Virus record (IMG/VR): IMGVR_UViG_2648501498_000007
Source of the DNA: a virus
Taxonomy: Duplodnaviria; Heunggongvirae; Uroviricota; Caudoviricetes
Strand: one strand, 5' to 3'
DNA: 13,363 nt
Shown here: one piece after another, positions 3,001-9,000 of the stretch
Layout: each line of letters opens with the position of its first letter
How positions within the stretch are numbered: the stretch's first letter is position 1
Made by a program: the position numbers

Positions 3001-6000
3001 AAGTCAGGAAGATTTGGTGTGCGCACAGTGGATCTGGGGACGAATCGTGAGTCTTTACGAGCAGGCGGCCAGCGATGATGGCGAGATCACTAGACCGAAA
3101 GAACCCAACTGGACAGCATGGGCCAATGACGTTCGCACAATGCGGATGCTGGATGGCAGAACTCACAGACAAATTTGTGAAATGTTTGGGCGTCTCCAGC
3201 GGGATTCGTTCTGGGTAAAAAACATCATGAGTCCGGCAAAACTCCGGGAAAAATGGGATGAACTGGTTATCCGCCTGGGGCGTTCGCCTGCGCAGCGTTG
3301 CGTGAATCACATTTCTGAACCGGACACTGAAATACCGCCGGGATTCAGGGGGTGACGTGTCATGAAAAACATTGCGGCAGTTGGGGTTCTTGAACGTATT
3401 CGCAGACTTGCACCACAGGGGTCGGTTCCACCGTACCGGACGGTGGAGGAGTGGCGGGAATGGCAACTTGCTGAAGGACGAAAACGCAGCGAGGAGATTA
3501 ACCGCCAGAATCGCCAGTTGCGGGTGGAAAAAATCCTGAATCGTTCGGGCATCCAGCCTCTGCACAGCAAATGCTCGTTTGCAAATTATCAGGTGCAGAA
3601 CGACGGGCAAAAATACGCGCTGAGCCAGGCCAAATCCATAGCTGACGAACTGATGACCGGGTGCACGAATTTTGTGTTCAGCGGTAAAACCGGCACCGGG
3701 AAAAATCACCTTGCAGCGGCGATGGGCAACCGGCTGATGGTGAAGGGGCGCAGCGTGATTATCGTCACCGTGTCTGACGTCATGAGCGTGTTGCATGACA
3801 GCTACGACAACGGCAAATCCGGGGAAAAATTTTTACAGGAGCTTTGCGGGGTTGATTTGCTGGTCCTGGATGAAATAGGCGTTCAGCGGGAGACGAAAAA
3901 CGAGCAGGTGGTATTGCACCAGATAATTGATCGCCGGACAGCATCACTGTGCAGTGTCGGGATGTTAACAAACCTGAATCATGCCGCAATGAGTACGCTT
4001 CTTGGTGAGAGGATTATGGACCGCATGACCATGAACGGTGGTCGATGGGTGACGTTTAACTGGGATAGCTGGCGTCCAAATGTCAGCAATATGAGGGTTG
4101 TGAAGTAATTTTGTCCGGAGGAAATTTTAATGGAAACCGTATCTGATGCACTGAAAGCACTGAAAAAAGCCTCTTCACATGTGGTGGCAGCTCGCCTTGG
4201 AATCAGTCGTGAAGAGGCTGTCAACGAGCTGTGGGAACTCAAAAGAAATGGCGTCGTTGATAAAACTGGTCACACCTGGTTTCTGGCTGGCGAAGGTGAA
4301 TCCCGGGTAACCGAAGAGCGGCCAGTAAAATCTGAAGCACAGGATATGCTGACCGGGGAGGTCGAACAAAAAGTTACCGCAGACATGATGATTGAGTTTA
4401 TCGGTCAGGATGGGGCTAAAACGTGTGAGGAACTGGCGGGTAAGTTCGGTGTCAGTACTCGCAAGGTTGCTTCCACGCTGGCGGTGGTAACCGCAACGGG
4501 GCGGCTGGCACGCGTTAATCAGAACGGTAAATTTCGTTACTGCATGCCGGGCGATAATTTACCAGCAGAGCCGAAAGCCGCGCTGGTAACGGAAAGTGAT
4601 GGTAAGGCCTTTCCTCAGCCAGCAGGTGCTGCGTTACCAGGCCGGGAAGCCGCAACACAGGAAGAAATTAAAACAGAAACTGTGGCGGACATTGTGCAGT
4701 CGTTGCCATCGTTTACCGAAACGCAAGCAGATGAGCTGATTTTTCCGTCCCTGCGCAGGGCAAACCTGGCGCTGCGCAGGGCGAAAAGTGATGTTCAGAA
4801 GTGGGAGCGAGTCTGCGCCGCGCTGCGGGAGCTGAACAAGCACCGGGATATTGTTCGACAGATTACTGATTCTTCCCGCCGTGTTGTATCGGAAAAGTGA
4901 TTGCCGGAGGCGCTTATGGCAAAAGTATTTACACAAGAAGAGCGGGAAAAAATTAAAGGGCAGGTTGTTGAGCTAGTACGCCGGAGTGGGCGCGAGACGT
5001 TACGGCAACTGGAAGCCAAGACAGGTGCGACAAGATATCTGATGAGTGTTCTCGCCAGAGAGCTGGTTGCCAGTGGCGATGTATACAACTCTGGTTACGG
5101 GTTATTCCCGTCTGAACAGGCGCGTAAGGACTGGCAAAACGCCCGCAAAAAACTCTCAAGGGCAAATCTGAAGAAACCATCTGTGGTTGATCCTGACCTT
5201 ATCTGGCCATTACCAGACGGAGAAATACGCCGCTACGACAGGCGTCAAAACATAATCTGTAGCGAGTGCCGGAAGAGCGAAGCTATGCAGCGTGTACTGG
5301 CTTTCTATCAGGGTAATTTTCAGAAGGTGCTGTTGTGAGCCAAATTAACAATCGGAACTTCGTGAAGAGAAAGCATAATCCAAATCTGAATAATTAAGTT
5401 CAGCACTGTAAATAAAATTTAATCCTTAACTGGAGGTATATCTATGTCAAATACACAGAAAATTATTAACACTGAAAAATATAACGAGTGGGTGAAAAAA
5501 TTCTCTGAGCAGATTTTTAAAATTACTGGCGACGAGAATGTGGCAAAAAATGAATTGGAACCGTGGACACCTGAAGGAAACGCACCAAATTATTGCTGGT
5601 GGGAGGTTGATCCGGTTGATGCTGCAAATGAAGCCATGAGTTACCACAACGATTAATGTCGGGAGGCCGCCCGAAAGGGCGGTAAGAAATGACTACATTA
5701 TTCAGAAAAGAATATCCGCAAAAAAGTAGGGCGACAGAATTTTTGTTTCTCATTCTGTTTATCGTATTGATGATACCGATATCCCCTCTAATTTTTGTCT
5801 GGGCAATCGGGAAAATAATTGAGCCAGTTACTGAATTGTATAACGACGTGGTATGGGCGTCATTCAACACACTGCACAATAAAATTAATCCGTATAAGGA
5901 AAACTGATATGGCAACTTTGACAAAAAAAGAACGGGCATGGTTGAACGAATTACAGGAAGTTCTTGATCGCTGTCCATCACCGAAAAAAATTGGCTTTTA

Positions 6001-9000
6001 CACCATTGGCGATAAAAGCATTTACCTGTATGACCTACGCCGCATGGATGAAATCATGGAGGCTCTTGATAATCGTTCGTCGATGGATTGGTGTGTTGCT
6101 GTTCATGATATGAATGCAGGGTTTGATGAAAAGATTTTGTTCCCCTCATCAGTTGAAAGCACTGCGGGTTAAGGAGTAACACATGACCACTATTACCAAA
6201 GAACGTATTGAATTGTTCATTAAATTTTCAGGAGGCGGTACTGTGAGTGAAATTAGCTATCAGGCTTCAATTACCGCTGGCATTCGCATCAAAGGAGAGG
6301 AGCATGGAAATAAAACCAGAGGATGAGTTAAGCAATATCGTTTTATTTCCGGTAAAAGAGGATGACCCTCGTAATCAGGTTAATTTTCTTTATGAGCCAT
6401 CGGAAAGACCATATTGTCATCACGCCTCTGTCCGGGTTGACGAAAAAGAGCGTCAGGTCCGCTGTAAAATCTGCGGTGCAGTTGTGGAACCATTTGACTG
6501 GATGCTCTCTGTGGCGAAAAGAGAAACCAGACTGGCAGATGATGTAAGGCTCTTGCGTCAGGAGGAGCGGGAAAGGCGAAAAAATATAGAAAAGCTAATT
6601 CAGATTGAGCGTAACGCGAAAGCGCGGATACGCAGGGCGACAAAATCCAGAACTGAATAATTAAATTTAGCTCTGTTAAAAATTTAATCCTTAACCGGAG
6701 GGATTTCTGCACCCTCAGAACATCAGGAGGCCGCCCGAAAGGGCGGTAGTTAAATGCGAAAGTTTAAAATAATTATTGAAACGGGAATAGCCGGTGGAGA
6801 TTTCGAGGATGAATTCGAAGTGGATGATGATGCGACGCCTGATGAAATACATGACGAAGCAAAAGATATTTTCTTTAACTACTGCAATTACTCATATCAC
6901 GAAATAAAAGACGAAGAGGAAGAACAAAATGGCTGATTTTGGTTCAACTAAATACAACGTCGGTTTTGAAGAATGGCATGAACTGTTAATGGACTATGCA
7001 GAGTTACGTGGTGGCAGTGCTGCTGATGCTGAAGCATGGCGTGATGATTATGAAGCAGGAAAAACTCCGGTCGAAGCATATTGTGATGAGTGGGGCGATG
7101 AATGAGCGAGGTTAATTATCAGGAAGGGCATGAAACGGCGGGGCAAGCAAAAACAGTGGCATGGCGATATCGCTACGTGAAAAAAAGGCGTTACGGACTT
7201 TCAGGGGAAGTAGTGGTCTGGTGACTGGAAATATGTACCGAAAAAAGAGGATTGTAACGACAGGCCGAACTATGAAATTCAGGCCTTATTCACTGCCCCG
7301 CCAGTCCCGGTTACATCAGAAGAACTGGTTAAAGCTGTGCACTTTTATGAACAACTAAAATGCGAAAATCCACCAGCATCCGGAAACCTGATTACAGATT
7401 CCCAGATAAGGCAATGAGCTACCTGGCGCAGAACGGGCTGATAAGTATGGGGAATGTTTTACGATGAATATTTAGACTAAAGAGTTTGTAACGCTATGTA
7501 AGTGATTTTTTCTGGTTTAGATATTTATATGTCCGGCTAAATTGAGGTGTGTTTAAATGTTATTGCACATTGATTGTAGGGGGAATAATGAAAAACGCAT
7601 TGCAGTTTTTGTTTGTTGCGTTCTGGTTGTTCGCATCATGTATGCCCATCATCTTCACAGCAAGGTATATGGAAAAAGTTGATGTTTTGATATTAATGTT
7701 TGGACATATAAATGCCCTTTTTTTAGGGGTGTTCATGGCGGTCATGTGCATTGAATACTGGCGGTAAATACAGCGAACGCCATTGGTTTAGTTGGATATT
7801 TACTGTGCCGGACAAAAACGGTTTGCGGGGAAATCTTAGTTAAGTAGAATGACTGCGGGTGCTTGAGGCTATCTGTCTCAGGCATGAACACCAAAAGGCA
7901 GATAGAGAAAAGCCCCAGTTAACATTACGCGTCCTGCAAGACGCTTAACATTAATCTGAGGCCATATCTATGCGACACATAGAGATTAGCCTCTTACGGA
8001 CCGAAAGGTCAAGGAGAAGCAGGCTATGAAGCAGCAAAAGGCGATGTTAATCGCCCTGATCGTCATCTGTTTAACCGTCATAGTGACGGCACTGGTAACG
8101 AGGAAAGACCTCTGCGAGGTACGAATCCGAACCGGCCAGACGGAGGTCGCTGTCTTCACAGCTTACGAACCTGAGGAGTAAGAGACCAGGCGAGGGGGAA
8201 ATCCCTCGCCACCTCTGATGAGTCAGGCATCCTCAACGCACCCGCACTTAACCCGCTTCGGCGGGTTTTGTTTTTTCCTGGCATTCTGGTTTACAATTCG
8301 CACGTCAGCCTGAACACCTGACACCTGCTGCGCCAGTAGAGAAAACAGATGGCGCACAAAACCAAATTTCACAATTCTGATACCGACCTTGCCATCCGGC
8401 ATGGGCGGCGTTCACACGCATTTAAAACCGACTGGTACCAACACCCACCATGTACTGAAGAACAGGCCGAATGGCTAATTCATAACTACCGCAGACGCGG
8501 ATACGAGATTAAGAAAGCCCTCAGCCTCGATTATCGTCACTGGATAATCTATGTCAGGCTCCCTTATTCCGAACGCCCACCGCGTCCGTCCCGCACATTC
8601 CAGCAACGCATCTGGAGGTAACGTGCGGGTATTACTTCGACCTGTTCCGGTACCGGAACTTGGGCTGGTGGTGCTAAAACCGGGCCGTGAATCCATGCAG
8701 GTATTTCATAACCCTCGAGTTCTGGTGGAGCCGGAACCGAAAAGCATGCGCGGTCTGCCGTCCGGAGTCGTTCCTGCTGTTCGCCAGCCGCTGGCGGAGG
8801 ATAAATCATTACTGCCATTTTTCAGCGATGAGCGGGTGATTCGTGCTGCTGGTGGTGCTGGTGCATTGTCTGACTGGCTGTTACGCCACATTAAATCCTG
8901 CCAGTGGCCTCATGGTGACTACCATCACAGTGAAACCGTCATACATCGTTACGGTACCGGCGCGATGGTGTTGTGCTGGCACTGCGACAACCAGCTGCGT

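Follow-up and report, generated by a model that had tools for sequence, protein, structure and literature searches.

A conserved boundary element between accessory genes of Escherichia lambdoid prophages and its probable part in gene reassortment

Conserved sequences at the boundaries between modules of lambdoid phages have been described as targets of recombination (PMC3233612, citing Susskind & Botstein 1978 and Clark et al. 2001, the latter on HK620). T4-type phages possess repeated promoter-early stem-loop (PeSL) cassettes (PMC2839356, PMC4122927), and genes 38 and 25 of T4 have split ribosome-binding sites, in which a hairpin reduces the distance between the Shine-Dalgarno sequence (SD) and the start codon from 22 to 5 nt and from 27 to 11 nt, respectively (PMC3014915; Nivinskas et al. 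1999; Malys & Nivinskas 2009). Here we describe a repeated element in a 13,363-nt stretch of viral DNA (IMG/VR record IMGVR_UViG_2648501498_000007; referred to as the window), which belongs to an Escherichia coli lambdoid prophage of the Rac/Qin type. A preliminary description of the window had reported a module of about 60 bp, duplicated at two gene boundaries with 80–85% identity as judged by eye, and had taken it for a recombination linker marking mosaic joints. We found that this stretch is the left half of an element of about 100 nt, with a conserved core of about 63 nt, that is found between numerous unrelated gene families, variously combined. Both segments are probably copies of a conserved intercistronic boundary element of the accessory regions of Escherichia/Shigella lambdoid prophages (Rac/Qin-like and Shiga toxin (Stx) prophages), which would supply stop and start signals to the adjoining genes as well as a patch of homology.

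Like the lambdoid boundary or linker sequences, the element is short and conserved and is situated where genes adjoin, flanked by segments without homology; it is found in various genomes beside varying neighbours, and is a proposed target of homologous recombination. It differs from them in being about 100 nt long and composite (a stop block, two SDs and a hairpin with a GNRA loop), in being able to house a gene, and in being specific to Escherichia prophage accessory regions, a comparison made through the summaries of the original work in later papers. The element seems to match the boundary sequences in position and function, with this particular sequence apparently undescribed; a literature search for it returned no paper containing it, Clark et al. 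2001 lying outside the reach of that search. PeSLs are likewise repeated intergenic stem-loop cassettes, located in plastic regions beside small non-essential genes of unknown function, and recombination between copies accounts for gene insertions, deletions and replacements, as it would for the element. However, PeSLs have a strong sigma-70 early promoter and a working terminator, whereas neither is predicted in the element, the signals of which are translational (stop codon and SD); the element is therefore not a PeSL. Furthermore, the hosts of PeSLs are virulent myoviruses and those of the element temperate lambdoid prophages, and PeSL mini-circles have been demonstrated, whereas reassortment at the element is suggested by sequence patterns. 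With T4 gene 38 the element shares its geometry, an SD–AUG distance of 22–23 nt with a hairpin exactly between the two and 5–6 nt left, this likeness being one of geometry and predicted folding only. Each T4 split site serves one gene, whereas the SD-hairpin of the element is common to several unrelated downstream genes.

Architecture of the repeated element

Global alignment of 5375–5436 with 6642–6701 matched 52 of 62 columns (83.9%) with one 2-nt gap, and the wider pair, 5374–5443 and 6641–6708, matched 58 of 70 (82.9%). The similarity estimated by eye thus held on proper alignment, and it lies beyond that of all shuffled sequences: the local alignment of 5339–5443 with the remaining window scored 38.5, as compared with 10.8 ± 1.0 (maximum 14.5) for shuffled queries. 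The window contains the 23-nt core AAAATTTAATCCTTAACNGGAGG at two places only, 5414–5436 and 6679–6701; none of 200 shuffles contained it, even with 3 mismatches tolerated. The two copies are direct and separated by 1267 bp, and the SD-hairpin GGAGGCCGCCCGAAAGGGCGGTA is duplicated exactly (5662–5684 and 6726–6748).

Copy 1 is located in a 105-nt non-coding gap downstream of lygF (DUF977), which ends at 5338, and the ATG at 5444 of a gene referred to as Y comes 7 nt past its GGAGG. Copy 2 overlaps the final codons and the TAA stop (6658–6660) of the open reading frame (ORF) of a gene referred to as X, and its GGAGG (6697–6701) has no start codon; 24 nt farther on there is a second GGAGG, followed by a hairpin and the ATG of the next gene. 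In these points our results agree with the preliminary description, which had also suggested that copy 1 retains a remnant of a related gene end: positions 5374–5385 do align to the last codons of the X-type gene (6641–6652), reading '* S K S E *' as compared with 'K S R T E *'. The repeat described there is real, but its size had been put too low, as the unit includes the SD-hairpin and may carry gene Y inside.

The full element is composed, in order, of the stop block CTGAATAATTAA, an AT-rich spacer, the motif AATCCTTAAC, a first SD (SD1, GGAGG), a 24-nt spacer or gene Y, a second SD (SD2, GGAGG), a 7-bp GC-rich hairpin with a GNRA loop, and 5–10 nt leading to the start codon of the next gene. 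In the window, copy 2 spans 6653–6753, and copy 1 spans 5386–5436 and 5659–5688, with gene Y between these two parts (Table 1). Scanning of viral contigs for the core yielded about 130 instances. Since this first scan demanded exact AAAATTTAATCCTTAACNGGAGG, the invariance of the corresponding columns is partly by construction, and samples selected by the hairpin and by the genes were used to offset the selection. In 124 of 126 loci the module was paired with exactly one SD-hairpin (GGAGGCCGCCCGAAAGGGCGG), and the hairpin occurred nowhere else in those neighbourhoods. The distance between module and hairpin was 45–48 nt in 101 instances and 247–248 nt in 30. The short form is that of copy 2 (...CCTTAACCGGAGG GATTTCTGCACCCTCAGAACATCA GGAGGCCGCCCGAAAGGGCGGTA, then the start codon), and in the long form, that of copy 1, the 24-nt spacer gives way to gene Y, for which the first GGAGG is the ribosome-binding site. 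The hairpin-selected scan recovered the same core (AATCCTTAAC..GGAGGGATTYCTGCACCCTCA..GGAGG-hairpin) behind further, different AT-rich left parts, with only one unrelated match.

On the left, homology between contexts ends at CTGAATAATTAA, which covers the two final codons of the upstream gene as well as its stop. The (A/C)CT GAA TAA of the element encodes the ..TE* or ..PE* with which three unrelated upstream protein families terminate. Where the upstream gene stops early, as with copy 1 behind lygF, a short non-coding X-type remnant precedes the block, and such remnants of X-type 3' ends are present to the left of the element with lygF and with two further gene families. The right limit of homology is 5–10 nt past the hairpin, at the start codon, and the flanks are unrelated. 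No terminal inverted repeats and no character of a miniature inverted-repeat transposable element (MITE) or repetitive extragenic palindrome (REP) were seen by eye, the two ends of the element being unrelated. About 17 of 80 loci with DUF4014 homologues have no element but an ordinary AAGGAG site with overlapping stop and start codons; these genes are homologous to their element-linked counterparts from codon 3 onward, which indicates that the element substitutes for an ordinary intercistronic junction, start codon included.

Flank combinations and linkage along the element

Clustering of the 200-nt flanks of 106 unique instances at the DNA level gave 8 upstream and 14 downstream clusters, which occur in 35 combinations; by protein clustering, the flanking ORFs fall into 11 upstream and 7 downstream families. 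Among the combinations, 51 four-gamete rectangles (two upstream and two downstream clusters with all four pairings present) were counted. Sequence variation in the left part of the element follows the upstream gene, that at its extreme right end follows the downstream gene, and that in its middle is only loosely linked to either. As measured by the ratio of mutual information to entropy (MI/H), the variable columns left of the core had values of 0.7–1.0 with the upstream cluster and 0.15–0.3 with the downstream cluster, and the normalized mutual information (NMI) between the left haplotype and the upstream cluster was 0.99. For the columns just past CCCTCA the values were 0.34–0.70 with the downstream and 0.06–0.24 with the upstream cluster, and those past the hairpin had 0.72–1.0 with the downstream cluster. 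This switch of linkage along the element is consistent with the pattern that crossovers within it would be expected to leave.

Rearranged blocks were found in the Stx phage ArgO145, where the order is X-E(Y)-DUF7167 block ... E-DUF4014 (E being the element), as compared with lygF-E(Y)-DUF4014 ... X-E-DUF7167 in the window; the corresponding segments are all 89–96% identical and are differently joined at the element. In addition, the arrangement lygF-E-DUF7167, the predicted product of recombination between the two copies of the window, occurs in the sample. The earlier interpretation of the repeats as recombination linkers at mosaic joints is supported by the flank combinations, the four-gamete configurations and the reordered blocks of ArgO145, and the motif is present in other phages. 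The ArgO145 blocks (KY914478.1, our locus L003) lie at 2136–4134 of that locus, within about 5–8 kb of the left genome end and on the minus strand, adjoining NinC-like and ead/Ea22-like genes; those of the window lie between the replication genes and hok/rusA.

Since the element is the only sequence common to otherwise non-homologous cassettes, it probably serves as a homology patch of about 60–100 bp for homologous recombination, carried out by host RecA or by phage recombinases of the RecET/Red type. Exchange at the element would reassort accessory genes among co-resident prophages and infecting phages, and the two direct copies of the window would be one outcome of such exchanges. Rad52-like recombinases are able to make mosaics between lambdoid phages and Rac/Qin via diverged homology (PMC3945230), and the mechanism proposed here fits those experiments.

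The main alternative model of phage mosaicism is illegitimate joining followed by selection (PMC3233612). According to this model, the element would be a passive relic inherited from one ancestral X-Y-next-gene layout, of which it was the 3' end and the intergenic region, while its neighbours were acquired by illegitimate recombination and selection for intact genes. The conservation of the element is not above that of the adjacent genes in the same context, as a relic would have it, and the X-type 3' remnants behind lygF and other genes indicate that at least some of the joints are non-homologous. We consider a passive relic unlikely, because one shared element is found with so many flank combinations and four-gamete rectangles, the left edge CTGAATAATTAA is identical behind three unrelated ORFs, linkage with the upstream gene gives way along the element to linkage with the downstream gene, and independent illegitimate events would not keep recreating the same junction of about 100 nt.

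Translation signals and the optional gene Y

At its two ends, the element would furnish a stop codon to the gene upstream and a translation initiation region to the gene downstream. The gap between SD2 and the ATG is 23 nt in copy 2 and 22 nt in copy 1, a distance too great for an ordinary site. It is occupied by a hairpin (7-bp stem, GAAA loop) that leaves 6 and 5 nt, respectively, to the ATG, and folding of the two hairpin regions gave −15.9 and −18.8 kcal/mol (z = −3.1 and −4.0). In some variants the loop is GGCA. Stem variation among 54 unique sequences consists mostly of C-to-U changes that keep U·G pairs on the plus strand, with one compensatory A-U pair and a few mismatches, which weakly suggests constraint on the coding strand at the RNA level. 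We think that the right half is probably a split ribosome-binding site common to several unrelated genes, in which the hairpin would shorten the SD2–AUG distance from 22–23 nt to about 5–6 nt, as in T4 genes 38 and 25. One downstream family has its own SD past the hairpin (GGTGGAGATAATAATG).

In the minimum free energy fold of the whole element, SD1 (GAGGG) pairs with CCCUC and SD2 (AGGA) with an upstream UCCU. Such pairing beside a stable GNRA hairpin, together with a z value of −2.8 for the 120-nt region and stem changes that mostly preserve wobble pairs on the plus strand, is what would be expected if the element were a structured cis-acting RNA (an SD-sequestering translational regulator, or an element for mRNA stabilization or processing), recombination being a side effect. 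This explanation appears improbable to us. The opposite strand folds about equally (z = −2.6), the SD-sequestering helices, being invariant, show no covariation, some variants break the pairing (GGATGG, GGAGTG/CTCTC), and the form carrying gene Y puts 225 nt between the proposed pairing partners; moreover, the element is confined to closely related Escherichia/Shigella sequences and matches no Rfam family.

That the element is instead a transcription signal, whether a promoter, an intrinsic terminator, a nut-like antitermination site or a small RNA gene, is highly improbable. Its left part is AT-rich, its hairpin resembles boxB, and AGCTCTGTTAAAAATTTAA in copy 2 resembles the boxA and spacer of lambda nutL (CGCTCTTAAAAATTAA). 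However, a scan of 4900–7300 on both strands detected no sigma-70-like promoter and no intrinsic terminator in either copy, no run of T residues follows the hairpin, the next bases being AGTTAAATG or AAGAAATG, and a search of the whole window against Rfam (E ≤ 1) assigned no family to either copy. As for a nut site, the boxA-like GCTCTGTTA is present in only a subset of the copies, most having GCACT, GTGTT or GTTCT rather than GCTCT; the motif is about 50 nt from the hairpin as compared with about 8 nt; and there are several elements per operon, two of them here within 1.3 kb, whereas a nut site would be expected once per early operon.

The presence of gene Y does not depend on the flanks, and about three quarters of the instances are without it. 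SD1, which would be the ribosome-binding site of Y, is left startless in the Y-less form. The preliminary description had called the SD of copy 2 orphaned; it does lack a start codon, but this is not peculiar to the window, being the predominant condition (about 100 of 130 instances). Since the startless SD1 belongs to the commonest form, it is not a one-off decay product. Relaxation of selection on SD1 following the absence of Y was considered, and no difference was detectable: GGAGG is intact in 32 of 36 Y-less unique sequences that had not been selected for it and in 17 of 18 unique sequences containing Y. A short ORF after SD1 is unlikely, as there is no ATG, GTG or TTG, and the lone CTG candidate (21 codons) is lost in variants such as GGGGGGCACCCTC. 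In the simplest history, SD1 would originally have served Y as its ribosome-binding site; a single loss of Y would have left a fused junction, and the resulting Y-less form would then have spread via recombination. The 24-nt spacer may plausibly have arisen by an internal deletion of Y; the ends of the two show a weak likeness (TCAGAACA..TCAGGAGG vs TCACAACGATTAATGTC(G/A)GGAGG), too weak to serve as proof. The reverse history, insertion of Y into the Y-less form, is possible.

A bolder proposal can be formulated from the same features, namely that the element is an active, self-propagating cassette junction, whose SDs, anti-SD-like UCCU/CCCUC and GNRA hairpin constitute an RNA that holds captured genes at low translation. 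Recombining copies could then excise circles of accessory genes that re-insert at other copies in lambdoid, Stx or even P1-like phages, and the captured genes, possibly toxic, could be kept at a set low level of translation. The element could in that case be a lambdoid counterpart of the PeSLs of T4, or be functionally analogous to the attC sites of integrons. We attach little probability to this proposal.

Several considerations weigh against the interpretation that we prefer, a boundary element providing stop and start signals and a homology patch. i) The recombination mechanism is inferred from population patterns in related, non-independent sequences, no event having been observed. ii) The hairpin region and the middle of the element are weakly tied to either flank, and the right-half haplotype has an NMI of 0.54 with the downstream and 0.52 with the upstream cluster, so that the gradient is clean at the two ends only. 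iii) In the same context of ArgO145 and the window, the element is 92.7% identical and the adjoining genes 95–96%; being no more conserved than its neighbours, it gives no sign of special purifying selection. iv) De Paepe et al. found no recombination hotspot in a lambda-Rac assay (PMC3945230), so that any preferred exchange here would reflect the availability of homology only. v) Homologous exchange alone does not account for how each new gene was first joined to the element. vi) A three-frame stop function was considered for the stop block; in 54 unique contexts only the middle stop, GAA TAA, ends long ORFs, and in 41 others none reaches the block, which leaves the use of stops in all three frames unsupported. 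vii) The predicted SD2–UCCU pairing, if real, would hinder initiation rather than help it, and the helices other than the hairpin carry no covariation signal because they are invariant.

Genomic surroundings, distribution and significance

The region from 5000 to 7200 of the window is 99–100% identical to prophage regions of 66 complete E. coli genomes; a matching region (99% identity) is present in strain ATCC 25922. The gene order of one annotated matching genome begins with a cI-like repressor, cro, ydaT, O-like and DnaC-like replication genes and DUF1627, and continues with DUF977 (lygF), small genes of unknown function, hokD, DUF968, rusA and a Q-like gene; at an annotated matching locus, an 'exonuclease' is annotated immediately to the left of the window's region. 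Every one of the small genes in the region of the window matches a phage protein family, which indicates that they are real genes, although their functions are unknown (Table 1).

Table 1. Genes and parts of the two element copies in the central region of the window
Feature	Position	Strand	Remarks
lygF/DUF977	4916-5338	+	annotated gene
X-type 3'-end remnant	5374..5385	+	non-coding; left of copy 1; aligns to 6641-6652
Stop block CTGAATAATTAA, copy 1	5386..5397	+	left edge; TGA, TAA, TAA, one per frame
AT-rich spacer, AATCCTTAAC core and SD1, copy 1	5398..5436	+	SD1 is GGAGG 5432-5436 and serves gene Y
Gene Y	5444..5656	+	annotated coding sequence, 70 aa; phrog_4659, full-length PHROG match 4.8e-51; function unknown
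Right half, copy 1	5659..5688	+	SD2 (5662-5666), GNRA hairpin 5666-5683, 5 nt, ATG 5689
DUF4014 gene	5689..5907	+	downstream gene of copy 1
Hypothetical gene	5909-6172
Hypothetical gene	6183-6326		47-aa ORF
Gene X	6304..6660	+	118 aa, zinc-ribbon-like, phrog_1621; last two codons and stop within copy 2
Stop block CTGAATAATTAA, copy 2	6653..6664	+	TAA 6658-6660 terminates X
AT-rich spacer, AATCCTTAAC core and startless SD1, copy 2	6665..6701	+	SD1 is GGAGG 6697-6701
24-nt spacer GATTTCTGCACCCTCAGAACATCA	6702..6725	+	occupies the place of gene Y in copy 1; CCCTC 6712-6716 is the predicted partner of SD1
Right half, copy 2	6726..6753	+	SD2 (6726-6730), GNRA hairpin 6730-6747, 6 nt, ATG 6754
DUF7167 gene	6754..6936	+	downstream gene of copy 2
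Small gene	6929-7105

Some other features of the window were recorded. A second, shorter junction family, composed of AAAGGAGAG and an overlapping stop/start (TGATGTG or GAGCATG), is represented at 6290–6306 upstream of gene X; it looks like a classic short boundary sequence of the SD type, and it also precedes the element-less DUF4014 homologues (in L185–L264), behind at least 4 different upstream genes. A 39-nt direct repeat with 77% identity is shared by the 3' end of lygF/DUF977 (5315–5353) and the interior of the 47-aa ORF (6223–6261 within 6183–6326), and may be another relic of a past junction. Within the O-like replication gene (2378–3355), an array of iteron-like repeats of about 15 nt (TTGACCCGTC type) and a 33-nt inverted repeat at 2719–2815 presumably represent the prophage origin. 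The sok antitoxin RNA of a hok/sok module (Rfam RF01794, 106.7 bits) was located at 7857–8028, and two confident tRNA genes and one weak candidate at 12274–12520, late in the window.

Of the 5426 complete E. coli genomes, 2667 contain the element, at 4690 places in total; a single genome has as many as 8, and 34 places are on plasmids. The copies of O157:H7 strains are about 93–94% identical. More than 120 viral contigs carry it, but only 18–20 of 50,697 deposited phage genomes do, namely Stx2a phages, Rac-like phages, a P1-like phage and a record labelled Actinobacillus. In K-12, both Rac and Qin are without the element. A scan of one genome per species gave credible matches in E. coli and Shigella flexneri only; the other four matches, in two Psychromonas, one Collinsella and one deltaproteobacterial metagenome-assembled genome, are presumably due to chance. 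In the P1-like phage vB_EcoM-Ro157c2YLVW (MH160767.1, our locus L004; Punavirus, 80.7 kb), an X-element-Y block with 92–93% identity to the window is present at 1664–2314 of that locus, at the right end of the record, which suggests that the cassette block travels between unrelated temperate phage types. The element also occurs at 11316–11373 of PP818812.1 (Actinobacillus phage vB_Apl-pPE4), in which about 36% of the 2.2-kb window query is matched with 93% identity. For a phage of a Pasteurellaceae host (Actinobacillus pleuropneumoniae) this was not to be expected, and the content of the record may be Escherichia-derived sequence.

The element is not a new principle and will not surprise a specialist in phage mosaicism. 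For annotation, it is of use in placing the start codons of small prophage genes and in accounting for an SD that has no gene. It also offers a portable natural SD-hairpin-AUG region and, if this is true, would be a second instance of split ribosome-binding sites, outside the T4 group. As to the debate on mosaicism, in which homologous exchange at boundary sequences is set against random illegitimate joining and selection, the element, with about 4700 copies in 5426 complete E. coli genomes, is an abundant and well-delimited case for measuring boundary exchange directly. Its many flank combinations, its optional internal gene, the presence of two direct copies in single prophages and its occurrence in both laboratory and pathogenic strains are useful traits in this respect.

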